Of a stretch of DNA of 64,000 nt, positions 2,572-44,465 are shown piece after piece; position 1 is the stretch's first letter, and every line of letters starts with the position of its first letter. The DNA lies in contig VBWC01000010.1 in the NCBI GenBank assembly GCA_006218035.1, positions 75,572 to 139,571 of the forward strand, given 5' to 3'. The notes under the pieces are model-generated. The model worked only from the letters and a program-made list of their open reading frames with translations, searched no databases and was not told the DNA's origin. This stretch comes from Gammaproteobacteria bacterium (GTDB taxonomy: Bacteria; Pseudomonadota; Gammaproteobacteria; VBWC01). A program made the position numbers and the translations under genes.

Positions 2572-3222
2572 CTACTTCGCCGCCGTTTCCTCAAGTTCAT
2601 TCGCGCGCTTGTAATGCTCTACGGCAGTCTCGCGATTACCCTGCAGCTCATAGGCGAAACCGATCGCGCGATGCAACTTGGATTCATTCGGTCGCAGCTC
2701 GAGCGCTGCCTTGAAGCACTCGATCGCCTTGTCATGCTGCTTCAGGTGATCATAGGCGACACCCAGTTTGTATTTCAGATTGAAATTCTCCGGATTCCGC
2801 TCGCTGGCCAGCTCCAGCAGGGAAACCGCCTTGTCGAACTGTTCGAGCTGTGTGTAGGCAATACCCAGCACCGACGCGATGCGGACGGAATCCGGGTGCG
2901 TCACCTGAGCCTCCTCCAGCAGCGCGACCCCGTCTTCGATTTGACCCGTTTTGAGATAGCTCATGCCCAGATACAGCGTGATTTCCGGATCTTCCGGGTC
3001 CTCCTGATGCAGCGTCGCCAGCAATGGCAAGGCCTTCGCATAGGCCTTCTTCTTGGCGTAGGCAAGACCTTTATTGCGGTAAAAATTGGCGCGCGTGTTC
3101 TCGTCTATGGTAAACAGGGAGTGAAACCCCGAGATCATGCCATTAGCCACCCGCTTTGCAACGTTGGCGCTCGCCACTGCGTACAATTCCACCGTGTCAC
3201 CAATGTTCATTCGCTGAGTCAT
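2572..3222 (-). CDS. mamA: MamA, TPR-repeat magnetosome-associated protein
   Basis: 216 aa composed of TPR repeats (LGMSYLKTGQ, LGIAYTQLEQFDKA, YKLGVAYDHLKQHDKAIECF). Size and position (after mamP, before mamQ) match MamA. GGAGG SD upstream of the ATG. Confidence 0.8.
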   Translation of the reverse strand: MTQRMNIGDTVELYAVASANVAKRVANGMISGFHSLFTIDENTRANFYRNKGLAYAKKKAYAKALPLLATLHQEDPEDPEITLYLGMSYLKTGQIEDGVALLEEAQVTHPDSVRIASVLGIAYTQLEQFDKAVSLLELASERNPENFNLKYKLGVAYDHLKQHDKAIECFKAALELRPNESKLHRAIGFAYELQGNRETAVEHYKRANELEETAAK

Positions 3223-9761: not shown

Positions 9762-10811
9762 CTATTCCGGCGCACCGATCATCTCGCCCAGCTGGTTCCA
9801 GTACATCGGCGGGAGATCCATCGCCAGTTTGATGGCGCCTTCGGCGGCCGCAAAATTCGCATCGGCCACTTTTACCACGCGGGTATCGCCATACTCCGCC
9901 AGTTGATCGGCAATCATTTCGTCAAGGCCGTGGATCAAGGAACCACCACCCGCCAAAATAATGTTCTGCAAAACTGTGCCCTGCACCGACGGATCAAACG
10001 TACGGAGTAGCGCCGTCACGTTCTCAATGATATCGGGCACGATCGACTCGCAAACGCTGCGGACCTGATCCTGCACCGAATAGACTACCGGCCGGCCGTC
10101 CGCCCGGAAATTGACGTTAATGGTACCTGCCGGCGAATCACCGACGAAGGAATGTTGTTCCTTGATATGGGAGGCAATCAGGTTGGTCAACTGGATATCG
10201 GGATAGGCCTCCTGCAACTCCGCCTTCAACTTGCCATCCAGATAATCGCCCGCCTTATGCAGCGTGATCTGGTCTTCCGGTCCCGGCATCATGCCTTTCA
10301 GCGCCGCGATGTCGATAGTCCCGGCACCGATATCAATAACGATGGCATTCAGTAGAATATCGAGCCCGTAGGCGACCATAAACGGCTCAGAGACTACCAG
10401 CGCGGTATCCATGACTTCGTGCGCCATGCTCAGCAGCAACGTCTTGTCCGCTGCCGAGGCACGGGCGGGAATACCGATGACACCCGCAATTTCGTCGCCG
10501 TCTTCGGGCTGCGCCAGCTGGAGCACGTAGTCGATCAGGTGTCTGGCGACGTCCAGGTCGCGATCGCTCAATTCCTTTAACACGCCCTCGCCCAGCGGGT
10601 AACGCAGGTCCAGATAGGAATGCTTGTCCAGGGCCTCCTGCCCGACCGCATATGGTTTGCCCAGCAGCTTCACGCCAATCAGATCCTTGGGGTAACCCAC
10701 CACCGATCTCACCATCTCCCTGGTGCCACGACTGGTCATAATCGCGGTACGTGATGTTCCGAGATCAATCCCCAGCAGCAATTGATTATCGTTTTTATGC
10801 GCGGCGTTCAT
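9762..10811 (-). CDS. mamK: MamK, actin-like magnetosome filament protein
   Basis: 349 aa. Actin/MreB-fold phosphate motifs (LLLGIDLGTSRT, ILAGGGSLIHGL). Position after mamE and the mamJ-position gene. Confidence 0.85.
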   Translation of the reverse strand: MNAAHKNDNQLLLGIDLGTSRTAIMTSRGTREMVRSVVGYPKDLIGVKLLGKPYAVGQEALDKHSYLDLRYPLGEGVLKELSDRDLDVARHLIDYVLQLAQPEDGDEIAGVIGIPARASAADKTLLLSMAHEVMDTALVVSEPFMVAYGLDILLNAIVIDIGAGTIDIAALKGMMPGPEDQITLHKAGDYLDGKLKAELQEAYPDIQLTNLIASHIKEQHSFVGDSPAGTINVNFRADGRPVVYSVQDQVRSVCESIVPDIIENVTALLRTFDPSVQGTVLQNIILAGGGSLIHGLDEMIADQLAEYGDTRVVKVADANFAAAEGAIKLAMDLPPMYWNQLGEMIGAPE

Positions 10812-10870: not shown

Positions 10871-12454
10871 CTACTCAGGCGTCGTCGATTTTTTTTCCTT
10901 GAAGAATCCACTGACCAATCTCGCGCCATCTTTCGCGCCCAACGCGATTCCGGATACTGACTGCCTGCCAACGTTCACTATCCGTCCGACTCCGTTGCCC
11001 AGCGCCTTGAAAACGCCTCTCCCCAAGCCCTCGATCGGTATCGTTTTCTCCAGTTTTTTTTTCCGCGGCACCTCACTCGAGGAGGATGTTGATGCCGTTG
11101 CCCGGCTGGCTGCTACGGTTGCCTGCGGCGTTGCACCGGCATCGAATGGCGCGCGCGGCTGACTGCCAACCTCCGCAGTACCGGTAACGACGGGGCGCTT
11201 CGGTATCGGCGCCCGTTGCTTCGGCCGAAATCGCGGTGATGGCTCCTCGGTGGCGCGGGAAACCGCACGTTGCCGCTCCGCCAGCCGCATCTTGAGACGG
11301 TCGGTATCCGAGATTCCGCCGGTATCCGGCTTCTTGACCACGAACTGACTTTCGGCAACCGCGCCGGCGAGCTCGCGTATCGCCTCGCCCAGTTCGTCGC
11401 GCTGAACCTCGCGAGCGGGACGGCTGACGGGCGAGGGCCGCGGCGCGAACGATGGGCGTTCCGGTTTGGGAGCGTCCACCGCTGGACGCGACGGGGCCTG
11501 AGCCTGCACATCCGGCGTCCGGCGCAACGGCGGCGGTGAAACCGACGCGTCCTGCGCCATCATCGGAACCGGGGCGGCGCCGCGCCGCGGTTCTGCCTCG
11601 CGTTTCGTGCTGCTCGCCGGTGCCGCAACCGGCGCGGGCTGTGTCACCGTCGCCTGTGGAACTGTTACGTGTGGCGCTGTCGCCCGCGACGCGATTACCT
11701 GCGGAGCCGCGCGGGACACGCCTGTGCTTTCCGGCATCGAGCGGCGCTTGAACGCCGGCGTCGGCCGGGTCGCCCACGGCGACGCCGCCATCAAATCGGT
11801 AAACTCCCCGGACACAGCCGATTTGTCACCAACGGGACGACGCCCATGATCGCCGCGCGTATCGTGCGCGGCGGCGGACGCCGCGCCCGTTCTCAGTCGG
11901 CTTGCCCACGGTGATGCATTCAGTAACTCGCCCAGACTCTGGCCGGTGGACACACTGGTTTCCGCCGGCATACGCTTGCTGTCAGGCTGCTCTTTCTGCA
12001 CTGCAGACGTCGTAGCAGCCTTTGTTGTAGATGCTGCGGCCGATGTTTTCGCGGTCTTTTTCTTTAGCGTCGCCGGACTGGGCTCGCTACCACCATGATT
12101 TGCAGGTTTTTTTGGCGCAGGCACAGCGGGGGGCGCGCTACGTTTTGGGTTGGCCCATGGCGAAGCGTCGAACACACTTACCCAGGATCCCTCAGGTTCC
12201 GCGACACCGGTCCGTTTTACCGTCGCTCTGCGATGAGCGCTGGATTGGATAGCAGAGCCCGTATTCTTCAGGGTCGCGGACGGCTTTCGGCTGACGGATG
12301 CCTTCGCAACGGCGCCCTTGGCAGCGACTGGCTTCGCCTTTTTCGTCGACGTACGAGCAACCGTCTTTTTGCGAGCGGCCTTCGGAGCTGTCTTTTTCGT
12401 AGCCTTGACTGTTCTTTTCTTCGCGGATGCGGCCCGCGACCTTTTTTTAGTCAC
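10871..12454 (-). CDS. Low-complexity Lys/Ala/Pro-rich protein in the mamJ position (putative MamJ analogue)
   Basis: 527 aa, GTG start. N-terminal ~60 aa extremely basic (MTKKRSRAASAKKRTVKATKKTAPKAARKK...). Then an Ala/Pro/Ser/Arg-rich region with three ASPWA motifs. Globular-looking C-terminus (GRGVFKALGNGVGRIVNVGRQSV). Sits between mamE and mamK exactly where mamJ lies in Magnetospirillum, but is basic rather than acidic. Confidence 0.45.
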   Translation of the reverse strand: MTKKRSRAASAKKRTVKATKKTAPKAARKKTVARTSTKKAKPVAAKGAVAKASVSRKPSATLKNTGSAIQSSAHRRATVKRTGVAEPEGSWVSVFDASPWANPKRSAPPAVPAPKKPANHGGSEPSPATLKKKTAKTSAAASTTKAATTSAVQKEQPDSKRMPAETSVSTGQSLGELLNASPWASRLRTGAASAAAHDTRGDHGRRPVGDKSAVSGEFTDLMAASPWATRPTPAFKRRSMPESTGVSRAAPQVIASRATAPHVTVPQATVTQPAPVAAPASSTKREAEPRRGAAPVPMMAQDASVSPPPLRRTPDVQAQAPSRPAVDAPKPERPSFAPRPSPVSRPAREVQRDELGEAIRELAGAVAESQFVVKKPDTGGISDTDRLKMRLAERQRAVSRATEEPSPRFRPKQRAPIPKRPVVTGTAEVGSQPRAPFDAGATPQATVAASRATASTSSSSEVPRKKKLEKTIPIEGLGRGVFKALGNGVGRIVNVGRQSVSGIALGAKDGARLVSGFFKEKKSTTPE

Positions 12455-12523
12455 CCCTACCTCCCGCGAACCTGGTTCGATTAGCTTATTTTCGGCTATG
12501 GAGATTTAGAACCGATTTATACA

Positions 12524-15223
12524 TCAAAGCGTGACAAAAATCTCGCGATTGTTGCGGTTAATCTTGAACAACACGTTGGGTTCGTTCGCCGCATTGTTTA
12601 TCGCGCGGTCCAACAACTCCGGCGTCCCTACCGGCTGATTGTTGATCAAAATAACCACATCCCGCTTCTGTATGCCGGCCTGCATGGCGCGCGAACCGCG
12701 GCGGACCTCCTTGACCTGTGCCCCCATCAGCGGCCCGACTCCCGGCAGTCCGCCGACCGCACCGGCCACCGGCTGCCGAACAACCTTAAGCTCCATCCCT
12801 AACCAGTTAACTTCGTTTCTAACGCCCCGGCCCGGTAGCGGCGCTGGCACCTGGTCGCCGTTCGCCACAATCATATCCAGCCGAACATTCTGACCCGCTC
12901 CGTTCCGATCGATATTCAGCCGCGGCCGATCGCCGGTCTGCAGCGCGCTCAGTTCACGCGCCAGCTGGTCCGGAGTACGAACCCGTTTTCCGTCGATTTT
13001 CAGGATGATATCACCCGCCACAAGGCCGGACGTTTCGGCCAGCGAACGCGGCACGACCGAACTGACAAACACGCCCTTGCCTACCGGCTGATTTATTTGC
13101 GTCGCGAGAAACGGCGATACCGGCATTACCGTTGCACCGAGTATCACACGCGCCTCCGGTTCCGCGGCGGCCAGAGTATCGACAGGCATTCCCGGCATCT
13201 GCGCCATGCCTGCCTGTCCCATCGGGACCGGCGGCGCCATCATCATGCCCTGCCCGTTGTTAGCTGGCATCATCGCGTTCGGCGCCACGCCACGGTTTTC
13301 GGGGCGCGGGTCCTGATTGACGTTCATGCCCGCCACGCCCTGATTCATCCCCGCCATACCGGGCATCCCGCCATTCCGGTTCTCGAGACGGCGATCCTGG
13401 TTGATGTTCATGCCAATCATGTCCTGGCCGGCCATACCCTGGCCCATGCCCATCATGCCGGGCGCCATGGCGCCATTCTGGTTTTCAAGACGGCGGTCCT
13501 GATTGACGTTCATTGCCAACGTCGCCGGCGGCCGCGCGAACTGATATTGCGGCATCGCGATCGCCATCGCGTTAACGCCGCCCGCATTAATACCCTGCTG
13601 CGCCGGGAGCATCTGGTGACAGATCGTGCAGTTCATCCGTTCACGGCCATCCGTATGTGGCGCTGGTGTACCCGCGATAATCGCCGGGCCAGGATCCGGA
13701 CGGATTTGCTGCGCAATCTGCTGCATTACCGGCTGCGTACCCATCATCATGCCGATCTGGTTCATACCTTGCTGCGCCGGGAGCATCTGGTGACAGATGG
13801 TGCAGTTCATCCGCTCACGGCCATCCGTATGCGGCGCCGGTGTGCCGGCGATGATTGCCGGGCCCGGGTCTGGCTGTATTTGCCGGGCGATCTGTTGCAT
13901 CATCGGCTGCGTCGCAACCACATTGGCGCCGGCTTGCTGGCCGCCAACGATCTGATGACACATCTGGCAATCCATACGCTCGCGGCCATCCGTATGCGGC
14001 GACCTTGTTCCGGCCGCAAGCGTCGGACCGACCTGGTTGCCCGCCGGTTGCATCGCGATCTGCTGCATCGCCACCAGCTGCGCCATCGGCTGCTGATTCG
14101 CCATCGCGTCCGGAAATACCGCTGGCAACGCCACCTCGGTCTGCACAAACTGCCTGACCCGGTTCGATGGAATCGCGAAACCGACACCGGAGAATGCGCC
14201 GGTCGGCGTGTATATCGCAGTGTTGATACCTATCACTTCGCCCTGATCATTCACCAACGGGCCGCCGGAGTTGCCCTGATTCACGGCGGCATCCGTCTGA
14301 ATCAAATCACCGTGGGTGACCCCCTCGATGGTCAGCGATTTACGCAGACCCGAAACAATGCCGCGGCTGACCGTCTGATCGAGACCAAACGGGCTGCCGA
14401 ACGCCAGCACGGATGACGCCACCGGAATCTTCGTGCTGTCGCCCAGCTTCGCGGCGCGCAACGGCAACCGGGAATTTATCTTCAGCAGCGCGAGATCGAT
14501 ACCTTCGTCCAGCCTGACCATCTGCGCGAGATAACGCTGCGTACCCGAGTCATGGAATACGGTCACATAGATTGCCGCGGCACCACGCACCACGTGAAAA
14601 TTCGTAATGACATAACCGTCCGAGTGGACGATGACGCCGGAGCCGATACTTTCGTTGCCGGTGCCGGTTGCCGGGCTGGTAAACTGCACGCCCGCCGATG
14701 CCGCACCAGGTGCAACGGTTTCCTGTGCCGCCACCGACGCCGAGCGCGTGACGTTGATATTCACGACACTGAAACGCATCTGTTCCGCCACAGGCGCAAA
14801 CCGGCTCGCGGCCAGCATCATCGGATCACCGGGCGGAATGCCGACCGGCATACTGGCCGCCGGCGCCAGGGCCTCGGGGGTCCAGCGCGGCTGCATTTGC
14901 TGTTGCGGGAAATTGCCACCGCCATTCGGCATCGGCTGCGCGTTGGCAAACGCGGGCATCGGGTCACCCATGCCCGGCATCGAATTCATCGCGTTGGCGG
15001 GCATCTGGTTTTGCATTGCGAACGCCGGCATCGCCGGCTGAGCACCGGCTACATTGTTAGCCGCCGGTCTGGTTGACAGATCGACATGTATGCCCTTGTC
15101 GAAGAAATTAACGTACCAGTAGCTGCCGAGCACGATGAGAATCGCGGCTGCCCCGAGGACGTAGAGGTAACGGCGCGTTTCCAGGCCGCACCGGTCGGAG
15201 ATACCGAAATTAAGCATTCCCAT
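12524..15223 (-). CDS. mamE: MamE, HtrA-like serine protease with PDZ domains and three magnetochrome CXXCH motifs
   Basis: 899 aa. N-terminal TM helix. Trypsin-like catalytic motifs (VITNFHVV, DLALLKI, GNSGGPLVND). Three CXXCH motifs (MDCQMCHQIVGG and two copies of MNCTICHQMLPAQQ). Two C-terminal PDZ-like regions. Internal tandem repeats. Confidence 0.85.
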   Translation of the reverse strand: MGMLNFGISDRCGLETRRYLYVLGAAAILIVLGSYWYVNFFDKGIHVDLSTRPAANNVAGAQPAMPAFAMQNQMPANAMNSMPGMGDPMPAFANAQPMPNGGGNFPQQQMQPRWTPEALAPAASMPVGIPPGDPMMLAASRFAPVAEQMRFSVVNINVTRSASVAAQETVAPGAASAGVQFTSPATGTGNESIGSGVIVHSDGYVITNFHVVRGAAAIYVTVFHDSGTQRYLAQMVRLDEGIDLALLKINSRLPLRAAKLGDSTKIPVASSVLAFGSPFGLDQTVSRGIVSGLRKSLTIEGVTHGDLIQTDAAVNQGNSGGPLVNDQGEVIGINTAIYTPTGAFSGVGFAIPSNRVRQFVQTEVALPAVFPDAMANQQPMAQLVAMQQIAMQPAGNQVGPTLAAGTRSPHTDGRERMDCQMCHQIVGGQQAGANVVATQPMMQQIARQIQPDPGPAIIAGTPAPHTDGRERMNCTICHQMLPAQQGMNQIGMMMGTQPVMQQIAQQIRPDPGPAIIAGTPAPHTDGRERMNCTICHQMLPAQQGINAGGVNAMAIAMPQYQFARPPATLAMNVNQDRRLENQNGAMAPGMMGMGQGMAGQDMIGMNINQDRRLENRNGGMPGMAGMNQGVAGMNVNQDPRPENRGVAPNAMMPANNGQGMMMAPPVPMGQAGMAQMPGMPVDTLAAAEPEARVILGATVMPVSPFLATQINQPVGKGVFVSSVVPRSLAETSGLVAGDIILKIDGKRVRTPDQLARELSALQTGDRPRLNIDRNGAGQNVRLDMIVANGDQVPAPLPGRGVRNEVNWLGMELKVVRQPVAGAVGGLPGVGPLMGAQVKEVRRGSRAMQAGIQKRDVVILINNQPVGTPELLDRAINNAANEPNVLFKINRNNREIFVTL

Positions 15224-16201: not shown

Positions 16202-16891
16202 ATGAGTTCGGATCACCACGAAACACCCATCGGCGAAATGACGCTCTTCGACAGAGTGGAGTTGTATTCGCAATATGGCGCGCGGGTTGCCAAACACGTC
16301 GTGGTTAACGTCGCGTCAGGCGTCCGCTCTGCATTTCGGTTCAACGGCAGCCTGCGCGAAGGATTATTCCTTGAAAAAGGCATCAAATATACGCGCAGCG
16401 GATTTTACAGCAAGGCCATTCCAATTCTGGAAAAAGTGCTCAAGGACATACCGGACGACCCCGAAATACTCGTGCATCTGGGGCTGTGCTACACCAAGGT
16501 CGGCCAGTCGGACCATGGCCTGGACCTGTTAAAAAAGGCGCACGAAACCAGCTCGGGCTCGGTCAAAACGGCGATGATCCTGGGCATCACCTATCTCGAT
16601 GCGGAGGATTACCAGAATGCCGCGGACTACCTCGAACTCGCTGCCGCAAAAAAACCCGAAGACTACAAGATTCGCTACAAACTCGGCGTGTGTCACGACA
16701 ACCTGAAACAGCATGACCGGGCCATCGACTGGTTTGAGCAGGCGCTCGAGCTGCGGCCCGATATTCCCAAATTGCACCGCGCGCTCGGGTTTTCCTACGA
16801 GATCAAAGGCAAGCGCGCCAAGGCAATCGAGCATTTCCAGCGTGCCACCGCGCTCGAGGAACAGGGCACCGGGGTCGACCCCCGGCGCTGA
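16202..16891 (+). CDS. MamA paralog, TPR-repeat protein
   Basis: 229 aa. Full-length similarity to the MamA at 2572..3222 (e.g. YKLGVCHDNLKQHDRAIDWFEQALELRPDIPKLHRALGFSYE versus YKLGVAYDHLKQHDKAIECFKAALELRPNESKLHRAIGFAYE). Transcribed divergently from mamI. Confidence 0.75.
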   Translation: MSSDHHETPIGEMTLFDRVELYSQYGARVAKHVVVNVASGVRSAFRFNGSLREGLFLEKGIKYTRSGFYSKAIPILEKVLKDIPDDPEILVHLGLCYTKVGQSDHGLDLLKKAHETSSGSVKTAMILGITYLDAEDYQNAADYLELAAAKKPEDYKIRYKLGVCHDNLKQHDRAIDWFEQALELRPDIPKLHRALGFSYEIKGKRAKAIEHFQRATALEEQGTGVDPRR

Positions 16892-16955
16892 TCCCCGCTA
16901 TAATCCGCCTGTTCTCGGTCTCTGCACTATTCCGGAGGTAACGAATTTGACTCAC

Positions 16956-17993
16956 ATGGCGCGGCCTACACCTCTTGTCGGACTCACGATGCTGCTTGGC
17001 GTCGCGCTGTGCGTCGGTCCCGGGCAAAACGCGACGGCCGAAGAGGTCAACCTGTATTCGGCGCGCAAGGAAGAATTGATCAAGCCGCTGCTCGATAAAT
17101 TCACTGCCAAAACGGGGATCAAGGTCAATCTCGTCACCGGCTCGGCCGATGCGCTGCTGAAGCGCCTGGAAACCGAGGGCAAGAACACGCCGGCGGATAT
17201 GTTCATTACCACCGATGCCGGGCGCCTGCACCGCGCCAAGGCGGCGGGCGTGCTGCAAGCGATATCGTCGCCAGTGCTCGAGAAGAATATTCCTGCCGAA
17301 TTCCGCGATGCCAAGGGATACTGGTTCGGCCTGTCGCTGCGCGCGCGGCCGATCATGTACGCCAAGGGCCGGCTGGATCCGGCGGAATTATCGACCTATG
17401 AGGCGCTCGCCGACGCGAAGTGGAAAGGTCGCATCTGCGTCCGTTCCTCGGAAAACATCTACAACCAGTCCCTGGTCGCCTCGATGATCGTCGCCAACGG
17501 TGAAGAAGCGACCGAAAAATGGGCGGAAGGCCTGGTACGCAACCTGGCGCGGCCACCGCGCGGTGGTGACGAAGATCAGATCAAGGCGGCCGCTGCAGGC
17601 CAGTGCGACATCGCCATTGCAAACACCTATTACCTGGGCGGCATGTTGCATTCCAGAGACCCGGGCGAGCGCGCAGCGGCAGAAAAGATCGCCATCTTCT
17701 GGCCGAATCAGAAAGACCGCGGCGTTCACGTCAACGTCAGCGGTGCCGGTGTGACCCGCTGGGCGCCGCATCGTGATACCGCGGTCAAACTGCTCGAATT
17801 CCTGATCACCGACGAGGCGCAGGAATGGTATGCGCAGGTGAATAACGAATATCCGGCCAAACCCGGCATTCCCGAAAGCCCGGCGCTGATCAAGGCATGG
17901 GGCCGATTCAAAGCTGATACTATAAGCCTGTCACAGCTGGGGGAGTACAACGCGGCAGCAGTCAAACTCATGGACCGGGCCGGATGGAAGTAG
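16956..17993 (+). CDS. fbpA: Fe(III) ABC transporter periplasmic substrate-binding protein (FbpA/AfuA family)
   Basis: Start moved to the ATG at 16956 (MARPTPLVGLTMLLGVALC... signal peptide). The upstream part of track ORF 16713.. overlaps the mamA-like gene. ~345 aa; typical FbpA motifs (LYSARKEELIKPL, ADMFITTDAG, YYLGGM). Confidence 0.8.
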   Translation: MARPTPLVGLTMLLGVALCVGPGQNATAEEVNLYSARKEELIKPLLDKFTAKTGIKVNLVTGSADALLKRLETEGKNTPADMFITTDAGRLHRAKAAGVLQAISSPVLEKNIPAEFRDAKGYWFGLSLRARPIMYAKGRLDPAELSTYEALADAKWKGRICVRSSENIYNQSLVASMIVANGEEATEKWAEGLVRNLARPPRGGDEDQIKAAAAGQCDIAIANTYYLGGMLHSRDPGERAAAEKIAIFWPNQKDRGVHVNVSGAGVTRWAPHRDTAVKLLEFLITDEAQEWYAQVNNEYPAKPGIPESPALIKAWGRFKADTISLSQLGEYNAAAVKLMDRAGWK

Positions 17994-18034
17994 CGCCTTA
18001 CTGACGCCTCGCCTTTTCCATAAACCCTATTCGC

Positions 18035-19780
18035 ATGGAAAAGGCACCGTTACCAAACCGACCGAAGCATCGCCCTGTCCGGCACCCGCGCTGGCGGCGT
18101 TACCTGCCGAATCCATGGGTGGCCGGAACCGTCGCGATCGCGACCTTGATCGCATTGCCGGTCATTACCGTTACAAGTTTCATCTTCGTTCCCGCCGGCG
18201 AGGTCTGGGATCATCTCGTTGCCACCGTCCTGCAGGACTACATCGTCAACTCCCTGATATTAATGGTGGGTGTCGCGGCCGGCACGCTGATCATCGGCGT
18301 CAGCACCGCCTGGCTGACGACCATGTGCAGCTTTCCCGGCCGCCGCATTTTCGAGTGGGCACTATTGCTGCCGATGGCATTCCCGGCCTACATCATCGCC
18401 TACACCTATACCGGCCTGCTGGATTTTGCCGGACCGGTGCAGACCGCCTTGCGTGAGTGGTTTGCCTGGTCGTACGGCGATTACTGGTTTCCCGAGCTCC
18501 GCTCGATCGGCGGCGCCATCGTCATGTTGTCACTGGTGCTGTATCCGTACGTATACCTGTTGTCGCGCGCGGCGTTTCTCGAGCAGTCGTCGCACGCGAT
18601 GGACGCGAGCCGCATGCTCGGCTGCGGCCCGTGGCGCAGTTTCCTGCTGATATCGTTGCCCTCGGCGCGTCCTGCGATCATCGCCGGTCTGTCACTCGCG
18701 CTGATGGAAACCCTGGCCGATTACGGCACCGTCCAGTATTTCGGTGTCAGTAATTTCACGACAGGGATATTCCGCACCTGGTTCGGCCTCGGCGACGCTG
18801 CCGCCGCCGCGCAGTTGTCCGCACTGTTGATGACGTTCGTGTTCGCGCTGATCGTGATCGAACGCTGGTCACGCAGCCGGGCACGCTATCACATGACCGG
18901 CCAGCGCTCGACACCGTTGCCAACATACCGGTTGCGTATCGGCAAGACCTGTCTGGCGTGGCTCGCGTGCGGCCTGCCTTTGACGCTCGGTTTTTTGTTA
19001 CCCGGCGGCCTGCTGGTCAGTTGGTCCATGGCGACGGCGGCATATGTGGTGGATGACCGGTTCTGGCAACTCGTGTTCAACAGTGTCACGCTCGCTGGTT
19101 CCGCGGCGCTGTTCGCGTTGTTGCTGGCGCTATACATGGCCTACAGCAAACGCCTTACCGGCGGCATGGGAACCAACTCGGCGGTACGACTGGCCGCCAT
19201 GGGTTATGCGATACCGGGGACCGTGATCGCGGTCGGCGTGATGCTGCCGTTCGGCTGGTTTGATAACACGATTGATGCATGGGCACGCGAGACCTTCGGC
19301 GTTTCCACCGGGCTGCTGCTCAGCGGTACATTGTTCGCCGTTATGTTTGCCTACATGGTGCGGTTTCTCGCCGTCTCGCTGCAGACCGTTGAGGCCGGAC
19401 TCGGCAAGATCCGGCCATCGATGGATGAAACAGCACGCTCGCTCGGGCATCGCCCGCTCGAGGTACTGGGCAGGATACATCTGCCGCTGATGCGGGGCAG
19501 CGTGTTGACCGCGATATTACTGGTGTTCGTTGACGTCATGAAAGAGCTGCCGGCGACCTTGATCTTGCGGCCGTTCAACTTCAACACGCTGGCGGTGCGC
19601 GCCTACGAACTGGCGACAGACGAACGGCTGATGGATGCGTCCTCCGCCGCGGTCGCCATCGTGGCAGCGGGCATACTACCGGTGATCCTGCTGAGCCGTT
19701 CGATTACACGTTCCCGATCTGCGCTGCAGGGCAGAACAGCGATCACGGAAACTGCCAGGATGGCGGCCCAGCCGGCATAG
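18035..19780 (+). CDS. fbpB: Fe(III) ABC transporter permease with duplicated permease domains (FbpB family)
   Basis: 581 aa. Two BPD-transporter-like permease halves, each with an EAA-like loop (ALMETLADYGT and VDVMKELPATLILRP). Confidence 0.8.
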   Translation: MEKAPLPNRPKHRPVRHPRWRRYLPNPWVAGTVAIATLIALPVITVTSFIFVPAGEVWDHLVATVLQDYIVNSLILMVGVAAGTLIIGVSTAWLTTMCSFPGRRIFEWALLLPMAFPAYIIAYTYTGLLDFAGPVQTALREWFAWSYGDYWFPELRSIGGAIVMLSLVLYPYVYLLSRAAFLEQSSHAMDASRMLGCGPWRSFLLISLPSARPAIIAGLSLALMETLADYGTVQYFGVSNFTTGIFRTWFGLGDAAAAAQLSALLMTFVFALIVIERWSRSRARYHMTGQRSTPLPTYRLRIGKTCLAWLACGLPLTLGFLLPGGLLVSWSMATAAYVVDDRFWQLVFNSVTLAGSAALFALLLALYMAYSKRLTGGMGTNSAVRLAAMGYAIPGTVIAVGVMLPFGWFDNTIDAWARETFGVSTGLLLSGTLFAVMFAYMVRFLAVSLQTVEAGLGKIRPSMDETARSLGHRPLEVLGRIHLPLMRGSVLTAILLVFVDVMKELPATLILRPFNFNTLAVRAYELATDERLMDASSAAVAIVAAGILPVILLSRSITRSRSALQGRTAITETARMAAQPA

Positions 19781-19792
19781 ACAGGTGTCAAT

Positions 19793-20863
19793 ATGGATGC
19801 TGAATATATTAAAGTGACGCTAATGCCTCTGCTGCAAGTCAACGTCGTCGAGATCCGTTACAAGAATACGGTGGTCACCTCTGACCTCTCGTTTCATGTT
19901 AACGAAGGCGAGATTGTCAGCCTGCTCGGGCCGAGCGGCTGCGGCAAGACCAGCATACTGCGCGCGATCGCGGGGTTTGAGCCTGTCCGCGAGGGCGAAA
20001 TTTTTCTTGCCGATCAATTAATGTCCTATCCGGGCTACGTCGTTCCGCCGGAGCAACGCCGCCTCGGCATGGTGTTCCAGGACTACTCGCTGTTTCCGCA
20101 CATGACGATACAGAAAAACATCTGCTTCGGCTTGCGCGGTCTGAGCAACCGCGCACAAATTCGCGTCACCGACGAAATGTTGACCATGGTCGGATTGCCT
20201 GGCTACAACAAGCGCTATCCGCACGAACTTTCCGGCGGGCAGCAGCAACGTGTCGCGCTCGCGCGCGCTCTCGCCGTGAAACCGCGCCTGCTGCTGATGG
20301 ACGAACCGTTCTCAAGCCTGGATGTCGAACTGCGCGCACGCCTGAGCTTCGAGGTCCGGGAAATACTCAAGGAGCAAAAGATCACCGCGATTCTCGTGAC
20401 GCATAATCAGCTTGAGGCGTTTGCGATGTGTGACATGGTCGGCGTGATGAACCACGGACGTATCTTGCAGTGGGACACGCCGTTCAATCTGTATCACGAG
20501 CCGGCCGACCGCTTTGTCGCCACCTTTATCGGCCAGGGCGTATTCCTGCAGGGCACTGTACTGACGCCGGATTCCGTGGACACCGAAGCAGGAGTTATCC
20601 AGGGCGACGCGCCACTGGAGTGGCCCGCCGGTACATCGGTCGATGTCCTGGTACGACCGGATGACGTGGTACCCGACGAGCACGGACCGCTGCACGGCAA
20701 GATCGTCAACAAGGTCTTCAAGGGCGAGGACGTGATGTATACGCTGCAATTGCCGAACGGCGCCAGCGTAATGTCCGTATTTCCGAGCCACGAACAATAT
20801 GACATCGGCGCCATGATCAATGTGCGCATCGCGGCGGATCACGTCGTCGCATTCGCCCGCTAA
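19793..20863 (+). CDS. fbpC: Fe(III) ABC transporter ATP-binding protein (FbpC family)
   Basis: 356 aa. Walker A GPSGCGKTS, signature LSGGQQQRVALARAL, Walker B LLLMDEPFSSLD, and a C-terminal TOBE-like domain. Confidence 0.8.
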   Translation: MDAEYIKVTLMPLLQVNVVEIRYKNTVVTSDLSFHVNEGEIVSLLGPSGCGKTSILRAIAGFEPVREGEIFLADQLMSYPGYVVPPEQRRLGMVFQDYSLFPHMTIQKNICFGLRGLSNRAQIRVTDEMLTMVGLPGYNKRYPHELSGGQQQRVALARALAVKPRLLLMDEPFSSLDVELRARLSFEVREILKEQKITAILVTHNQLEAFAMCDMVGVMNHGRILQWDTPFNLYHEPADRFVATFIGQGVFLQGTVLTPDSVDTEAGVIQGDAPLEWPAGTSVDVLVRPDDVVPDEHGPLHGKIVNKVFKGEDVMYTLQLPNGASVMSVFPSHEQYDIGAMINVRIAADHVVAFAR

Positions 20864-22091: not shown

Positions 22092-23459
22092 TCACTGATC
22101 GACCGATACGGCCGGACGGTAGGTCGGTTCAAAGTCCTCATAGGCCAGCATCGTCACCATACCCCCCGGATAGATCCCGTTGTTTCTGGCGTGCGACCCC
22201 TGGTGGTCGTGAAACGCCCAGTACCCGGGATTGTCACCATGAATCATGATGTCGTAGGTACCACCCGGCTCGACATGCACCGTGTTGAGTTTCAGCGGCA
22301 TCGGCAGATCATGCCCGTCCTGCGCGACCCAGAAAAAATCGTGGCCGTGCAGATGCAGGTGATAACTTTCACCGCTGGCATTGATCAGGCGCACGCGTAT
22401 CCATTCGTCTTTCTTGATGCGGAGCGCACTGGTCGCCGGATGCGCCTTGCCGTTAATACCGAAGAAATTGGGCCTGATCGGAATGCCGGATGAGCGGCTC
22501 TCCAGGTACGGCGGTACGTACTTGCCGCTTTTGTAGGCAGCGACAAATTCCTCGTAGCTGCGAAAGAAACCGTGCGTCATCGGGTCCAGGCGCCCCTGCG
22601 CCATCAGCGTGTTGACCTGCTTCATACCCTCGAGCAGACCGTTCATCTCCTCGCGCGCGAAGTGGGTGTCCCATGCCTCGAGCATCAGCGTGTATTCGCG
22701 CGTGTAGGGATACTGCTCCTTCAGGCGCTCATGTTTACGCTGGATGATGAATGCGCCGTGCATGCCGTGACCCATGTGCAACGGCGTACCCCAGTGACAG
22801 TGGTACCAGTGCGTACCGGCCGGTTTCGCCTGGAAACGATAGACAAAGGTATGGCCGGGATGGACCGGATCCTGATTGAGCATCGGCACACCGTCCATCG
22901 TGTACGGGACGTTGACGCCATGCCAATGTATCGTGTGCATCTCTTCGGTGTTGTTCAGGAAATTCACCTTGATCCAGTCACCCTCGGTGACGTTGAATAC
23001 CGGGCCCGGCACGCTACCGTTGAAGGCAAACATATGCACTTTCACACCCGGCAGGATTTCGTGCTCGATGATGCGCACATCGATATCGAACACCTGATAG
23101 TCGACTTCATGATCGGCCGGCGACCCGGGCGGCTCGATGACCATGCCGGTCGGCATGTGATGTCCCTCCATGAATATCATCGAGCCATACTCCGACGCAC
23201 CGTTCCCCATGGAGGCATGGTCCATCATCGGGGGCCCGTCCGGCAGCGACGGCGCCGCCGGCATCGCGCCCTGACCGGCAGCAGGATTCATCTCGTGACC
23301 GCCGTGAGTCATCTCGCCCGCCACCGCCCGGCCGGCCACCACACCGCCGGCAAGTAACGCCGTGGTGCGCAAAAACTGCCGTCGTGATATCGACCCGGCT
23401 GGCTCGTCGGTCACCTCGGTAACCGTCGCCCTGCCCATCCTCGCAGACCCGTTATTCAT
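22092..23459 (-). CDS. Tat-secreted two-domain multicopper oxidase (cupredoxin family; CopA/ferroxidase/NirK-like)
   Basis: 455 aa. Twin-arginine signal (SRRQFLRTTALLAGG). Met/His-rich N-terminal segment. Cu-site motifs HWHG, YHCHWGTPLHMGHGMHGAFII (T1 Cys), HLHLHGHDF and HDHQGSH. Confidence 0.7.
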   Translation of the reverse strand: MNNGSARMGRATVTEVTDEPAGSISRRQFLRTTALLAGGVVAGRAVAGEMTHGGHEMNPAAGQGAMPAAPSLPDGPPMMDHASMGNGASEYGSMIFMEGHHMPTGMVIEPPGSPADHEVDYQVFDIDVRIIEHEILPGVKVHMFAFNGSVPGPVFNVTEGDWIKVNFLNNTEEMHTIHWHGVNVPYTMDGVPMLNQDPVHPGHTFVYRFQAKPAGTHWYHCHWGTPLHMGHGMHGAFIIQRKHERLKEQYPYTREYTLMLEAWDTHFAREEMNGLLEGMKQVNTLMAQGRLDPMTHGFFRSYEEFVAAYKSGKYVPPYLESRSSGIPIRPNFFGINGKAHPATSALRIKKDEWIRVRLINASGESYHLHLHGHDFFWVAQDGHDLPMPLKLNTVHVEPGGTYDIMIHGDNPGYWAFHDHQGSHARNNGIYPGGMVTMLAYEDFEPTYRPAVSVDQ

Positions 23460-23476
23460 TCACACAGCCCTCCAGG

Positions 23477-24190
23477 TTAAATCCAATCCAGCCGATCGGG
23501 CGCTTGCTTGCGCCAGGTAAAATGCTCATAAACACCGGACCAGTACATGCCAAATGCCGTCGCAAAAAGCAGTTCCTCCACCGGCATGAACCCCGCTTTC
23601 CACCCGGACAGCGCGGCAAGATTCCAGACGCGATCGATATAGCCCGGCGCACTCCACTCCAGGCCGGCGAGAAACACCGCGTAACCAACGAGAAACAATA
23701 TGCCGCCGATCCATGTCTTCCGCGCGAGATCCGGACGACACAGGACGTTGGCAACCAAGCCAATGATCATCGCAACAATTCCCGGGTAAATCGGGTTCCA
23801 CGGAAAGAAATATAAAAGCGGAAACGCAATGAACGGCGCCGACAGCGCCTTGTAATGATGGCGATGCAACGGTATACGGCGCTCCGCCGCCTCAACCGGT
23901 CTCGGCACCCTGCCGGTAATCAGATTATAGAAAACCCCCGCAATGCCGCCGATACCAAAACAGAAGATCAGGCTTTCGATATCAAAGCCCGTATTCACGG
24001 CGAGATCAAACAAACTCGGCGGCGACCAGTACTCCGGAACAAACAACGGTTCGGTCAAGCCGAACGGCATGGTAAACAGACTGGCCCACAACATCGCCCG
24101 GCGATGCGCCGGGAAAAATGCGTATACCGCCGCCCACGGTACGAGAAACGCACTCGACCAGATCAGCCACACGTATTGATCAGACGCCAC
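23477..24190 (-). CDS. Polytopic membrane protein of unknown function
   Basis: 237 aa. About 6 hydrophobic helices, Trp/Phe-rich. Confidence 0.4.
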   Translation of the reverse strand: MASDQYVWLIWSSAFLVPWAAVYAFFPAHRRAMLWASLFTMPFGLTEPLFVPEYWSPPSLFDLAVNTGFDIESLIFCFGIGGIAGVFYNLITGRVPRPVEAAERRIPLHRHHYKALSAPFIAFPLLYFFPWNPIYPGIVAMIIGLVANVLCRPDLARKTWIGGILFLVGYAVFLAGLEWSAPGYIDRVWNLAALSGWKAGFMPVEELLFATAFGMYWSGVYEHFTWRKQAPDRLDWI

Positions 24191-24263
24191 CAGGCTTTTC
24201 CATCATGACCGCTATTGGGAAGTTGCGCGGGCTGTTGTGGTGGACCAGATTTTCCGGCGATGT

Positions 24264-25961
24264 CTAGCGCACATAGGTCTCCGACGCATAACGACGCATC
24301 ATGCGATGACTGTTGAAGAACGAGGCGCTCTTGGCGATCGTGCCTTTCATGACGGCGATCCATCCGGCGCGGTCCTGGTAGTAGAGCGGTACCACCACCT
24401 GCTCGAGTTTCTGATACAGCGCGGCAGCGTCGCCGTCGGCCGCATCGATGTCATCGCCGATCGCCCAGCCGGTAACGCCCTCGATACAGCCCTCGACCCA
24501 CCAGCCATCCAGCACACTGAGCTGCGGCACGCCGTTGAACGCGGCCTTCATGCCGCTGGTGCCGCTCGCCTCATGGGGACGCAACGGTGTATTCAGCCAG
24601 ACATCGACACCGGCCACCATCGTCAGCGCGGTATCCATGTCATAGCCGGGTAGATAGGCCATCGTGACCACGCCGGCGAGTTCCTTGACATGCGCGTGCA
24701 ACGTTTCGATCAGACGCTTGCCCGGCTCATCGCGCGGATGCGCCTTGCCGGCTACCACCAGCTGAATCGGATGACGCGCGGCGAGATTCTTCAGGCGCCC
24801 AAGATCCGAGAACAACAGATCGGGCCGCTTGTACGCCGTCATGCGCCGGCCGAAACCGATCGTCAAATGGTCTGGCTGTAACATGATGCCGGTACGTTCT
24901 TTTACGGCGTCGACAAGCGCGCGCTTGGCTTCAACATGCGCCTCCCAGATGGCGGTATCCGCCATGCAGCAGTCGGCGCGCACCAACAGCTCGGGCTCAT
25001 GACACCAACCGGGAAACTTGGCGTCGTAGAGCCGGCGAAAACTCGCACTGGTCCAGGTAAACGGGTGCACGCCGTTGGTCACCGCGTGGACACGGTAACC
25101 CGGAAACATGTGCCGCGAGACCTCGGCATGGCGCTTGGCAACACCGTTGATGTATTCGCTCAGATTGAGCGCCAGCCTGGTCATGTTGAGATGATCGTCG
25201 CCCGCCAGGCGTTTGAGCGTTGTGAGATCGATAACATCGCCAAGCGTGCGCTGCACCAGGTCGTAGGAAAAACGGTCGTGCCCGGCCTCCACCGGGGTAT
25301 GAGTCGTGAAACAACACAGCTCGCGCACGCGCGGAATGTCGTACGGCGATTCACCCGGCCGGAGATCCTCGGCCGGGCGGGCATACCGGCGCAGCAACTC
25401 GACGCCAAGCAACGCCGAGTGCCCCTCATTCATGTGATACTCGCGCACCTCAAAGCCAAGCGCCTGGAGCATGCGCACACCACCGATGCCCAGCACGATC
25501 TCCTGCCGCAGCCGGTAGGCATTGTCACCGCCGTAAAGCGTTTGCGTGATGCGCCGGTCTTCGTCGCTGTTCTGCTCGATATCGGTATCCAGCAGAATCA
25601 CCGGCTGCGCGCCGCCCATGTGACCCTTCACGACATAGCACCAGCCGCCAACCCACACGCCGCGGCCTTCGATCGTCACCGCCACCATGGCTTCCAGACG
25701 CTCGGCCCAGAGTGCGGGCTCCCAGGCTGACGGTTGTTCGGTCTGCCGGCCCTGGTCATCGAGCGTCTGGCGGAAATAGCCGGCGGTACTCACCAGCGTC
25801 ACCGCCACCAGCGGCACCTCCAGATCGGCCGCGGAACGCAGGGTGTCCCCGGCGAGAACACCCAGCCCCCCGGCATAGGTCGGGATATCGTTGCGCAGCG
25901 CTATCTCCATCGAGAAATAGGCGATGCGCGGCTCATGCCGGAAGGCATCGATCGCGGACAT
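24264..25961 (-). CDS. Alpha-glucan family phosphorylase (GT35, glycogen/maltodextrin phosphorylase-like, short form)
   Basis: 565 aa. N-terminal [24 protein letters not shown], the block [14 protein letters not shown] (pyridoxal-phosphate Lys region) and [17 protein letters not shown], typical of GT35 phosphorylases. Confidence 0.75.
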
Positions 25962-25970
25962 GCCGGTGTG

Positions 25971-26225
25971 CTACGGCGAGCCGAACAGGCGCATGTCGAT
26001 TTCCGCCTCCGCCTGCAGCCAGTCGTCCAGCGCCGCCTCCCCCTGGAAACCGCGCTGCTCCGCGATCAGATACGCCGCTTCGGCAATCAAACCGTGCCGC
26101 TCCTCCGGGGTGGTCGCCCGCGCCGCCTTGCGTCCCGCTGCCCGGCGCCCGGTGCCGGCCGTCTTGCTGCCGGGCGCTTCTTTCGCCACCGTTCTCGTTA
26201 CCGTTGATTTCTCGCTGTGTGCCAT
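25971..26225 (-). CDS. DUF2934 family small protein
   Basis: 84 aa. C-terminal EERHGLIAEAAYLIAEQRGFQGEAALDDWLQAEAEI matches the DUF2934 signature (ERIRERAYEIW...HWLEAE). Confidence 0.55.
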   Translation of the reverse strand: MAHSEKSTVTRTVAKEAPGSKTAGTGRRAAGRKAARATTPEERHGLIAEAAYLIAEQRGFQGEAALDDWLQAEAEIDMRLFGSP

Positions 26226-26275
26226 TGACGCTTGTGTTTCACTCCCTTTTTCCTACACCCCGCGTTCAGCCTGCC
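26164..26275. repeat. Direct repeat copy 1 (~112 bp), covering the 5' end and upstream region of the DUF2934 gene
   Basis: Identical apart from a 5-bp indel to 28933..29049 (cttgctgccgggcgcttctttcgccaccgttctcgttaccgttgatttctcgctgtgtg...cactccctttttcctacaccccgcgttcagcctgc). Confidence 0.9.
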
Positions 26276-26505
26276 AAATCCCGTTTTTTCTCCTCGTACT
26301 CCTCACGATCCAGGTCACCACGGGCGTAGCGTTCCTGGAGTATCTGCAAAGGCGTTTTGTCCGTCGCGGGCCGACCGACCGCACTATCGCCAAAAACCCA
26401 TTTCCACAACGCAAAACTCCCGAGTATTGCAAGTATCGAGAAAATCAGCAGGTGCAATATCCCGACTGCCATCAACCAGCCGTGTTGCCCGTCATCAAAC
26501 CACAT
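26266..26505 (-). CDS. SHOCT-domain small membrane protein
   Basis: 79 aa. One TM helix, then C-terminal LQILQERYARGDLDREEYEEKKRDL (SHOCT motif). Confidence 0.55.
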   Translation of the reverse strand: MWFDDGQHGWLMAVGILHLLIFSILAILGSFALWKWVFGDSAVGRPATDKTPLQILQERYARGDLDREEYEEKKRDLAG

Positions 26506-26581
26506 AATTCCCTCCGTTGATCATCGTCGACAACGGCATCCACATGCTACATCAGCGTATGGCTGCCGGTTGCCGCCACGG

Positions 26582-27250
26582 TTATTCCCTTGCCGCCCCA
26601 AAGACCGGGATAAAGGCGGGAGTATGCGCCGCATAGCGCGCATACTCTGCGGCGAATGCCTGACGTACCTCTGCCTCCTCGCGTCGGGCAAGCCGCAAGT
26701 ACATGTAAACCAGCAGCGGAAACATCGCGAGTGTCAGGATCGTCGGCCATTGCAGCAGAAAGCCGAACATGATCATCACAAATGCGACGTATTGCGGATG
26801 GCGTATCCGCGCATAAGGGCCTGTCGTTGCCAGCGTGCCTGTAGTCTGCGCGGCGTAAAGCACACGCCACGCCAAAGAGAGCAACCAGAACCCGCCGCCG
26901 ATGAACACCATGCTGGCCACATGAAACGGCCCCCAGTGCGGATTGGCGCGCCAGCCGAACAGCATTTCCAGCAAATGCCCCGCATCATGGGAAAGCCAGT
27001 CCACTTGCGGATAGTTGGTCTGCAGCCAGCCGGAAAGAAAGTAGATGGTCAGCGGGAAACCATACATCTCAGTGAACAGCGCAACGAGAAACGCCGAGAA
27101 GGCGCTGAATGAACGCCAGTCACGTTTCGTCTGCGGCTTGGAAAAGCTGAAGGCAAAGAAGATGAAAATCGCCGAATTGAGGATCACCAGTGACCACAGG
27201 CCGTAGGCAGGCGCGGTTTCAGTCATGTTTGTGCCCTCCACCATGGTCAC
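26582..27250 (-). CDS. Isoprenylcysteine carboxyl methyltransferase (ICMT)/phospholipid methyltransferase family membrane protein
   Basis: 222 aa polytopic. C-terminal TTGPYARIRHPQYVAF...EE motif typical of the ICMT family. Confidence 0.65.
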   Translation of the reverse strand: MTMVEGTNMTETAPAYGLWSLVILNSAIFIFFAFSFSKPQTKRDWRSFSAFSAFLVALFTEMYGFPLTIYFLSGWLQTNYPQVDWLSHDAGHLLEMLFGWRANPHWGPFHVASMVFIGGGFWLLSLAWRVLYAAQTTGTLATTGPYARIRHPQYVAFVMIMFGFLLQWPTILTLAMFPLLVYMYLRLARREEAEVRQAFAAEYARYAAHTPAFIPVFGAARE

Positions 27251-27434
27251 GATGCATAAAGAGATGCATCAACGGACAAGCGAGCAGCAACAGATAAGGC
27301 AACACACCGAACGCATGGGCGCGATGCTCGCTGAAAAGGAAAAACGCGGCGATGGCGAAAAAGCCGATCAATATCCAGTTGACCCTGGTCTTGCCGCCGT
27401 GCGCCGGAGGATGTTCATGGGTATCAGGCATCAT
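27219..27434 (-). CDS. DUF2933-like small membrane protein
   Basis: Start at the internal Met-Met (27434). WILIGFFAIAAFFLFSEHRAHAFGVLPYLLLLACPLMHLFMHRDHGGGH resembles DUF2933 proteins. Confidence 0.45.
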   Translation of the reverse strand: MMPDTHEHPPAHGGKTRVNWILIGFFAIAAFFLFSEHRAHAFGVLPYLLLLACPLMHLFMHRDHGGGHKHD

Positions 27435-27603
27435 GCCACCTCGACAATTAAATACGTTGAACTGGCTGCCATCAATGCAGGGCGGGTGAGTTGCATGCTG
27501 TTCGCAATGTAACCCGCCAACGGTGCCGCCAGGCACTCATTAAAAAACAATTTGTGTGCTTCGCACGCTGAGGTTCGTCATTATTCATAGCAGTATCAGT
27601 CCT

Positions 27604-27792
27604 TCAGTTTGCGGGCGTTTCATCGCCCTTTTTCACTTTTTCCTGTTGGGGGCACTGCCGACAGTTTTCTTCACCGACAGTGGGGGGTACCGATCCCTGT
27701 GTTTGCCCCGCCATACCATGCCCGCCCATCATGGGCAGATGGCCAGCGCCTAAAACTATTAACAGAATCATAATGCCTATCATGACTGCCAT
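27604..27792 (-). CDS. Hypothetical small membrane protein
   Basis: 62 aa. N-terminal TM helix, Gly/Met-rich, C-terminal CRQCPQQ. Weak evidence. Confidence 0.25.
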   Translation of the reverse strand: MAVMIGIMILLIVLGAGHLPMMGGHGMAGQTQGSVPPTVGEENCRQCPQQEKVKKGDETPAN

Positions 27793-27851
27793 TTTTTAAG
27801 ACCTCATTTTTAGCAAACCCGCATCGCGGGCTTCATTCAGAACACATGTGC

Positions 27852-28850: not shown

Positions 28851-28932
28851 GGCGTTAGCCTCGCGCGTTTGAGCATGGCCGAGTTGATGATCACCGACAG
28901 CGAACTCAGCGCCATCGCCGCGGCGGCGATGA

Positions 28933-29049
28933 CTTGCTGCCGGGCGCTTCTTTCGCCACCGTTCTCGTTACCGTTGATTTCTCGCTGTGTGGCTTTCCAT
29001 TGACGCTTGTGTTTCACTCCCTTTTTCCTACACCCCGCGTTCAGCCTGC
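28933..29049. repeat. Direct repeat copy 2 (~117 bp)
   Basis: See copy 1. Carries a 5-bp indel that destroys the DUF2934-like start frame. The last bases include the stop codon of the cytochrome c gene. Confidence 0.9.
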
Positions 29050-29406: not shown

Positions 29407-29442
29407 CGCTCTGTTCGCTTTGCTGAACCGGTCATTACGCTC

Positions 29443-31854: not shown

Positions 31855-31912
31855 CTCATTCTCCTGTCACCCCGATGTGGCACGCTGCCGAAACCGCCTT
31901 CATCGGGATCGA

Positions 31913-44446: not shown

Positions 44447-44465
44447 TCTCGCGGTAACCCCCGAA

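Follow-up and report, generated by a model that had tools for sequence, protein, structure and literature searches.

Which gene stands in for mamJ in a magnetosome gene cluster that carries a gene for a strongly basic protein between mamE and mamK? The cluster lies in a 64,000-nucleotide stretch of contig VBWC01000010.1 (positions 75,572 to 139,571 of the forward strand; hereafter the window) from a metagenome-assembled genome (MAG) labelled Gammaproteobacteria (GCA_006218035.1), which is absent from the listing of Uzun et al. 2020 (PMC7449369). The gene order is mamI-mamE-X-mamK-mamL-M-N-O-P-A-Q-R-B, where X stands for an ORF (open reading frame) at 10871..12454 on the minus strand (527 aa, GTG start, TGA stop counted in), annotated at NCBI as hypothetical protein FD165_1784. 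A preliminary description of this gene placed it in the slot between mamE and mamK, which is upheld by the ORF listing, the domains of MamE, the MamK model score and the synteny of the orthologues, and it offered two readings, a very divergent MamJ or a non-homologous functional replacement. We favor the first over the second since two elements of the protein are co-linear with MamJ. The window protein is probably a highly divergent adaptor of the MamJ/MamJ-like family, named after the protein that links magnetosomes to the MamK filament, and works broadly as proposed below. Judged from its sequence, it is outside the strict definition of MamJ, as set by the curated model and the central acidic repeat (CAR) domain, and is a charge-inverted MamJ-like variant.

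The immediate family is small. A word-indexed search of 5.8 billion clustered proteins retrieved three cluster representatives only: the window protein, a protein 83% identical to it in GCA_023266115.1, and one 62% identical on a 2.3-kb JGI contig, where the gene call is shortened and the full ORF encodes 534 aa including the basic tail. All three members are encoded between mamE and mamK inside magnetosome clusters. For comparison with other species we used a reference set of mamK loci from GTDB species genomes (cited here by L numbers), fetched with a MamK alignment, in which the ORF directly upstream of mamK was read. The NCBIfam equivalog model for MamJ (NF040987, cutoff 100 bits) is passed there by the references for MamJ of Magnetospirillum, namely UT-4 (L011 5640-6923, 116 bits), a Telmatospirillum MAG (L008 5463-6944, 144 bits) and a fragment from a Rhodospirillaceae MAG (L007, 132 bits); LM-1 and nKLKbin1 reach 22-26 bits and the rest do not match. 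The order mamI-mamE-(J-like)-mamK recurs in the reference loci of seven other species.

The first element shared with MamJ is a short N-terminal motif. MamJ and MamJ-like proteins have the N-terminal consensus W..LL.(S/A)SPW(S/A), hereafter the SPW motif, which reads DVWVSLLDSSPWSS in UT-4 MamJ, EMWVTLLESSPWST in Telmatospirillum and GVWGDLLQASPWSN in LM-1 and nKLKbin1. The window protein has three copies of it (GSWVSVFDASPWAN, LGELLNASPWAS and TDLMAASPWAT), in agreement with the three ASPWA motifs noticed at the outset; an Ala precedes every SPWA, the starts of which are residues 98, 181 and 225, and all three copies are kept in the orthologues. Motif 1 covers residues 90-103 (12146..12187, minus strand; SWVSVFDASPWANP) and is kept in both of them. 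Motif 2 covers residues 173-186 (11897..11938, minus strand; SLGELLNASPWASR) and motif 3 residues 217-231 (11762..11806, minus strand; EFTDLMAASPWATRP), and short AlphaFold2 helices lie over both, at residues 174-180 and 182-196 for motif 2 and at 216-223 for motif 3, of which residues 217-223 are inside the helix. A motif profile made from UT-4, Telmatospirillum, LM-1 and nKLKbin1 only, run against 897 six-frame fragments of the window, matched the window ORF three times with a summed E-value of 4.1e-9, the next fragment being at 1.8, and a profile from the two NCBIfam-validated MamJ sequences alone still found it with E=7.8e-5. The pattern [LFMVI]{2}.[SA]SPW[SA] occurred exclusively in genes directly upstream of mamK among 2.15 million six-frame residues from 88 loci plus the window. 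By these profiles, each ASPWA motif of the window protein is a copy of the motif at the N-terminus of MamJ. In UT-4 MamJ the motif occupies residues 34-47, which we infer to fall within the counterpart of the N-terminal interaction domain of Magnetospirillum gryphiswaldense MamJ, given as residues 23-81 in PMC10653835, where the CAR domain is described as non-essential.

Motif multiplication is not confined to the window family. A MamJ-like gene in a Thalassospiraceae MAG (L019 6010-6864; isoelectric point, pI, 9.0) has several (S/T)PW-type motifs (ADTPWLS, VASPWTD, YAPWVG and QNPWED) and is a second case. In Azospirillaceae CCP2-SC5, the gene upstream of mamK (L028 5693-6928) has a degenerate motif without Pro, EQWTELFQVASWRQ, and might belong to the family as a distant member; for CCP-1, a related strain, Dziuba et al. 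called the protein in that slot dissimilar to MamJ.

The second shared element is a Gly-rich amphipathic C-terminal domain at residues 465-520 (10895..11062, minus strand; KKKLEKTIPIEGLGRGVFKALGNGVGRIVNVGRQSVSGIALGAKDGARLVSGFFKE), with the consensus (V/I)P(V/I)E(D/N/G)L..G(V/I)......G..G, for which profile and hhalign comparisons point to homology with the membrane-targeting domain of MamJ and MamJ-like proteins. In M. gryphiswaldense MamJ, magnetosome-membrane targeting has been assigned to residues 334-426, including a Gly-rich putative helix at 359-379, and depends on MmsF/MmxF (PMC11628618). A profile of 15 proteins from other species found the window ORF with E=3.6e-8 (27.8 bits), the next fragment being at 0.1, and hhalign of the window-family C-termini against 12 foreign C-termini gave a probability of 96.1% and E=2.9e-9. 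When the foreign proteins were split into four disjoint subset profiles, the window ORF came first in 4/4, with E-values of 6e-5 for other alpha-type, 5e-3 for gamma-type and 9e-4 for zeta/Nitrospinota sequences. The reverse search with the window-family profile recovered the domain in L032, L038, L014 and L027. The Gly-rich segment of the window protein also has a high helical hydrophobic moment.

Since both elements are co-linear with MamJ and stand in the same operon slot, common ancestry is much likelier than convergence. LM-1, nKLKbin1, the Thalassospiraceae protein and the gamma-type and zeta-type proteins appear as intermediates that bridge the sequence gap to MamJ. Several results nevertheless weigh against such an assignment. 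The window protein has no match to NF040987 (E<=1), its acidic repetitive domain is missing and its charge is opposite (pI 11.4), and a C-terminal profile from strict MamJ only is marginal (E=0.088), with the window ORF still on top. The best 19-residue hydropathy average (GRAVY) in its C-terminal domain is 0.86 with 3 charged residues, versus 1.2-1.95 in alphaproteobacterial MamJ, so an integral helix is doubtful and peripheral amphipathic binding would be equally likely. No residue-level mapping of a partner of the SPW motif was found in the literature. Neither a HMMER search of 1.84 billion representatives with the family profile nor the search of 5.8 billion proteins gave a significant relative beyond the three-member family, and the case for homology to MamJ thus depends on synteny and two short elements. 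With scores of ~28 bits, this relationship escapes the database-wide searches; a protein-search query in which the two termini of UT-4 MamJ were joined likewise found no matches. The window protein has no meaningful match in sequence searches of Pfam, NCBIfam and PDB, and a match of the Gly-rich stretch to L-lactate oxidase (E ~0.04-0.09) was taken as chance.

These same results, the lack of significant similarity to MamJ across databases, the inverted charge without CAR repeats and the weak strict-MamJ profile, are what one would expect if an unrelated basic disordered protein had been recruited to the mamJ slot. Short linear motifs can evolve convergently, and the SPW motifs would then be of that kind. 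Such a replacement would have to account for two distinct elements in MamJ-like order at the same operon position, for the bridging intermediates and for the 96% hhalign probability, and we regard it as unlikely.

A different doubt is whether 10871..12454 is a gene at all, given a local GC content of ~62% and two overlapping ORFs in alternative frames, 11073..11777 (234 aa) and 11113..11511 (132 aa). The frame chosen in the preliminary description holds. The ratio of non-synonymous to synonymous substitution rates (dN/dS) amounts to 0.30 for the pair with the 83%-identical orthologue and to 0.27 for that with the 62%-identical one, and third codon positions account for 95/173 and 248/491 of the differences in these pairs. 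All three lineages, whose identity goes down to 62%, keep the frame open for 527-534 codons with no indels but in-frame ones, and the identical 527-aa product is a called gene in several independent assemblies. A Shine-Dalgarno sequence GGGAGG (12460..12465, minus strand) lies 5 nt 5' of the GTG start, and the start context GCGGGAGGT(T)AGGGGTG is kept in both orthologues (L001 and L003). With dN/dS of 0.27-0.30 and an excess of third-position differences, the frame is coding and 10871..12454 is a real gene under purifying selection; the two overlapping ORFs are high-GC by-products, and a spurious frame, or a true gene in another one, is so improbable as to be negligible.

The composition of the product bears out its description as highly basic and rich in Lys, Ala and Pro. 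Its pI is 11.4, with 95 Lys and Arg against 40 Asp and Glu (net charge +55), and it is rich in Ala (16.7%), Pro (10.6%), Ser (10.4%), Arg (9.3%) and Lys (8.7%). An AlphaFold2 model, computed from the three-sequence alignment of the family, predicts a largely disordered chain, with a mean predicted local distance difference test score (pLDDT) of 43.5 and values <50 for 412/527 residues; MamJ is likewise predicted to be unstructured (PMC3905215), and a disordered chain whose ends carry the functions is also how MamJ has been described. The only stretch with pLDDT 70-79 contains two conserved helices, residues 347-401 (11252..11416, minus strand; REVQRDELGEAIRELAGAVAESQ and DRLKMRLAERQRAVSR), the better-defined parts being residues 347-369 and 383-401. 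They appear to be lineage-specific, and dN/dS falls to 0.07 for alignment columns 361-420, which span most of the pair. The small ordered C-terminus of the preliminary description is nearly invariant across the three orthologues, but AlphaFold2 confidence is poor there (pLDDT <50). The gene encodes no acidic repeat domain and is free of tandem repeats at the DNA level, and the Leu-Gly (LG) repeat transmembrane segment of MamD/Mms5/Mms6 type is not present in the protein.

How can a protein of pI 11.4 belong with one of pI 4.1? The genes found in this slot span the whole interval. UT-4, Telmatospirillum and a zetaproteobacterial (EA)n protein stand at pI 4.1, followed at the basic end by L019 (9.0), L025 (10.0), the Nitrospinota protein L014 (10.2), L035 (11.0) and the window protein (11.4). 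The central acidic repeats of MamJ have been reported as dispensable for chain assembly (PMC3905215 and PMC10653835, citing Scheffel & Schuler 2007). Because pI in the slot spans 4.1-11.4 and the acidic repeats are reported to be dispensable, charge is no argument for non-homology, and the comparison suggests that net charge is not conserved in the MamJ/MamJ-like family and that the acidity of MamJ does not define it. A basic product, or one with a polybasic tail, is also encoded by the MamJ-like genes of nTSbin2 (L035 5899-6972, 357 aa), co234_bin55 (L038 5381-6886, 501 aa) and nS315bin38 (L025 4088-4933), all labelled Gammaproteobacteria, and in the Nitrospinota MAG nWMHbin6 (L014 5935-6744). 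Overall basic versions (L035, L014 and L025) thus occur in unrelated MAGs, and L035 and L038 have K/A/V-rich polybasic N-terminal tails of +15 to +21 over 60 residues. The window protein is an extreme yet not unique basic variant, combining the alpha-type SPW motif with the tail of some gamma-type genes. Charge complementarity between the adaptor and its cognate MamK was also considered and dropped, as 13 pairs gave no consistent trend (for instance, +39/-8 in L035 and -39/-24 in L038).

The tail itself, residues 1-81 (12212..12454, minus strand), is disordered and rich in Lys, Arg, Ala and Thr, with a net charge of +22 over the first 60 residues. It remains basic in the 62%-identical orthologue despite sequence drift, which suggests selection on composition. 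The first ~60 residues had been called histone-H1/AlgP-like, which is apt for their composition but not for any family relationship: residues 1-90 have no match to a Pfam family even at E<=10, the whole protein matches nothing relevant in NCBIfam at E<=1, and regular KPAA/AKKA repeats are likewise absent. One could still suppose that the protein is primarily an H1/AlgP-like nucleoid- or polyanion-binding protein that sits in a magnetosome operon by chance, as its Lys/Ala-rich tail and overall pI of 11.4 might indicate. This is very improbable in view of the lack of a match to H1, AlgP or another DNA-binding family, of the location of 3/3 homologues within magnetosome clusters (homologues exclusively outside such clusters would have spoken against the preliminary description), and of the pattern of conservation, in which the tail ranks behind the MamJ-type motifs, the two helices and the Gly-rich C-terminus.

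A tail of this kind could serve a MamJ-like adaptor in another way. PhaF/PhaM-type tethers fuse a Lys/Ala-rich disordered tail to an organelle-binding module. By analogy with these proteins and polyhydroxyalkanoate (PHA) granules, the H1-like tail might act as a second anchor and link the magnetosome chain with the nucleoid or with a polyanion such as polyphosphate, which we consider unlikely. The PhaF/PhaM granule-to-nucleoid tethers and AlgP/H1-like tails are alike only in the Lys/Ala-rich disordered tail; in the window protein the tail is N-terminal, and no sequence relationship is detectable. If there were such an anchor, chain positioning and segregation would depend on chromosome attachment besides, or partly instead of, MamK, and the tails seen in L035 and L038, two unrelated gammaproteobacterial MAGs, would point to an undescribed way of positioning organelles that recurs.

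For the divergent MamJ-like adaptor that we favor, binding to MamK, targeting to the membrane and any role of the tail are inferred by analogy, and the likely link to MamK proposed in the preliminary description can be accepted on that footing. The C-terminal domain (residues ~465-520) would bind the protein to the membrane of the magnetosome, a step for which MamJ of M. gryphiswaldense requires MamF-like proteins (PMC11628618). The sister genome has a 107-aa gene of the Pfam MamF_MmsF family and a Mms6-like gene downstream of mamB-S-T (L088), the equivalent region lying outside the window, and the MmsF-like protein would be a candidate insertion partner in the lineage. The three "hydrophobic-hydrophobic-x-A-S-P-W-A" motifs, triplicated from the single MamJ motif, would most likely make multivalent contact with subunits of the MamK filament, and the long Ala/Pro/Ser-rich disordered middle would be a flexible spacer whose charge is free to drift, here to strongly basic where MamJ is acidic. 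The first ~80 residues, rich in Lys, would be an add-on common to some gammaproteobacterial-type MamJ-like genes, and probably bind an anionic surface, be it acidic MamK, anionic lipids or nucleic acid.

The filament is not the only conceivable partner of the motifs. The protein could be a relative of MamJ whose SPW motifs dock elsewhere, on MamA or its paralogue encoded at 16202-16891, on the PDZ domains of MamE/MamP or on a MamY-like scaffold, in which case it would organize the magnetosome surface and not tether it to the filament. Short peptide motifs are ligands of TPR and of PDZ domains, and the window encodes two MamA-type TPR proteins that are 45% identical. MamJ of M. gryphiswaldense also connects magnetosomes to MamY (PMC10653835, PMC13170167), and we found no residue-level mapping of its MamK-binding site in the literature. 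Two-hybrid and Förster resonance energy transfer data, in contrast, map the interaction with MamK to the N-terminal and the C-terminal region of MamJ (PMC3905215, PMC10653835), both of which have been reported to mediate it (PMC3905215), and the gene is always immediately upstream of mamK, even of second mamK copies without mamE (L035 and L025). Docking of the motifs on a partner other than MamK is quite improbable, as is the attendant role in surface organization.

Against this background, the divergent MamJ-like adaptor can be set beside the proteins already described. Like MamJ of the Magnetospirillum references, the window protein occupies the mamE-mamK slot, is predicted to be mostly disordered, and has an N-terminal SPW motif and an Ala-rich stretch followed by a Gly-rich "(V/I)P(V/I)E.L..G" C-terminus. 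Unlike it, the window protein has a pI of 11.4 versus 4.1, no central acidic repeats, three motifs versus one, an 80-residue polybasic N-terminal tail, the extra helices at 347-401 and a less hydrophobic C-terminus. MamJ "seems to be missing" outside the magnetospirilla, where it has perhaps been overlooked (PMC10653835, 2023). MamJ-like[G2-11] of Rhodovastum atsumiense is a syntenic 563-aa acidic protein that partly complements delta-mamJ (Dziuba et al. 2022, PMC9938234, where the two proteins' acidic regions are given a pI of 3.3 and 3.2), and Mg-1g50 of Magnetovibrio blakemorei MV-1, encoded upstream of mamK-II, improves complementation by the cognate MamK (Awal et al. 2023, PMC10653835). 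As compared through their published descriptions, the window protein resembles both in being encoded directly upstream of mamK and in being recognizable only via short conserved N- and C-terminal stretches, but it is strongly basic where MamJ-like[G2-11] is acidic, and, with 527 aa, differs in size as well as in its strongly basic charge from Mg-1g50 (289 aa, no CAR domain). The Gly-rich domain of the window C-terminus also has counterparts in L035, L038, L027, L018, L025, L014 (Nitrospinota) and L032 (Zetaproteobacteria). In contrast with the window protein, all seven lack a clear SPW motif, L038, L027 and L018 have acidic centers, and L035 and L025 adjoin extra mamK copies instead of mamE, an arrangement reminiscent of Mg-1g50 and mamK-II of MV-1. 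In the literature, of which our coverage is incomplete, we came across neither basic MamJ-like proteins nor any account of the SPW motif as a signature.

In papers up to 2023, MamJ was an acidic protein for which two weakly similar substitutes were known, each found individually. The N-terminal SPW motif and the C-terminal Gly-rich domain now provide a portable signature that identifies the family and lets one follow it, through the gene upstream of mamK, across MAGs with the labels Alpha-, Gamma- and Zetaproteobacteria and Nitrospinota. A family pI from 4 to 11 speaks against models in which the acidity of MamJ matters for tethering, and the triplicated motif offers defined peptides and tryptophans for mapping the interface at which the adaptor meets MamK, a bacterial actin. 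The cell biology of magnetosomes and the transplantation of clusters into new hosts both gain incremental, directly testable points from this; the finding is a refinement for the field and not a new kind of system.

The neighbors of the gene are close on both sides. It is separated by 69 nt from mamE, upstream in the same operon, and by 59 nt from mamK, and no minus-strand terminator-like site was found between mamE and mamK. The mamK product (9762..10811, minus strand), the presumed binding partner, scores 480 bits with the NCBIfam MamK model; it is isolated in sequence space, its nearest relative outside the family being ~63% identical, and comparatively acidic (pI 4.6, net charge -22 versus about -9 to -11 in Magnetospirillum-type MamK). 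MamE (12524..15223, minus strand) is unusually long, with 899 aa that include a trypsin domain, 3 magnetochrome domains and 2 PDZ domains. Two of the three magnetochrome domains stem from a 174-bp tandem duplication (85% identical, around 13590-13912), and the protein further contains low-complexity stretches that are rich in Gln, Met, Asn and Gly and repeat the unit "N(I/V)NQDRRLENxNG".

Divergent from mamI, the gene at 16202-16891 (plus strand) encodes the second MamA-like TPR protein (229 aa), whose identity to the operon MamA (2572-3222) extends over 208 residues and whose position is conserved in the sister genome (L001 5603-6292). A ferric-type ABC importer (16713-20863, plus strand; periplasmic binding protein, permease and ATPase) adjoins the cluster, is conserved in the sister genome and is possibly a dedicated iron supply. 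On the other side of the cluster, 3' of mamB, the sister genome encodes mamS, mamT, a third CDF transporter, the Mms6-like protein (GLGLGLG plus an acidic tail), the MmsF-like protein, a MFS (MamH-like) transporter and a second MamI (L088 11228-17323); the counterpart of this region is beyond the window start. Farther away, at 22092-40796 and 41475-47774, the magnetosome cluster is surrounded by a chemolithoautotroph-like context, with genes for a LysR regulator, the large subunit of form I RuBisCO and a VWA (CbbO-like) protein, together with copper-handling genes for a multicopper oxidase, a Cu-type P-type ATPase with HMBD/YHS domains and an RND efflux pump.

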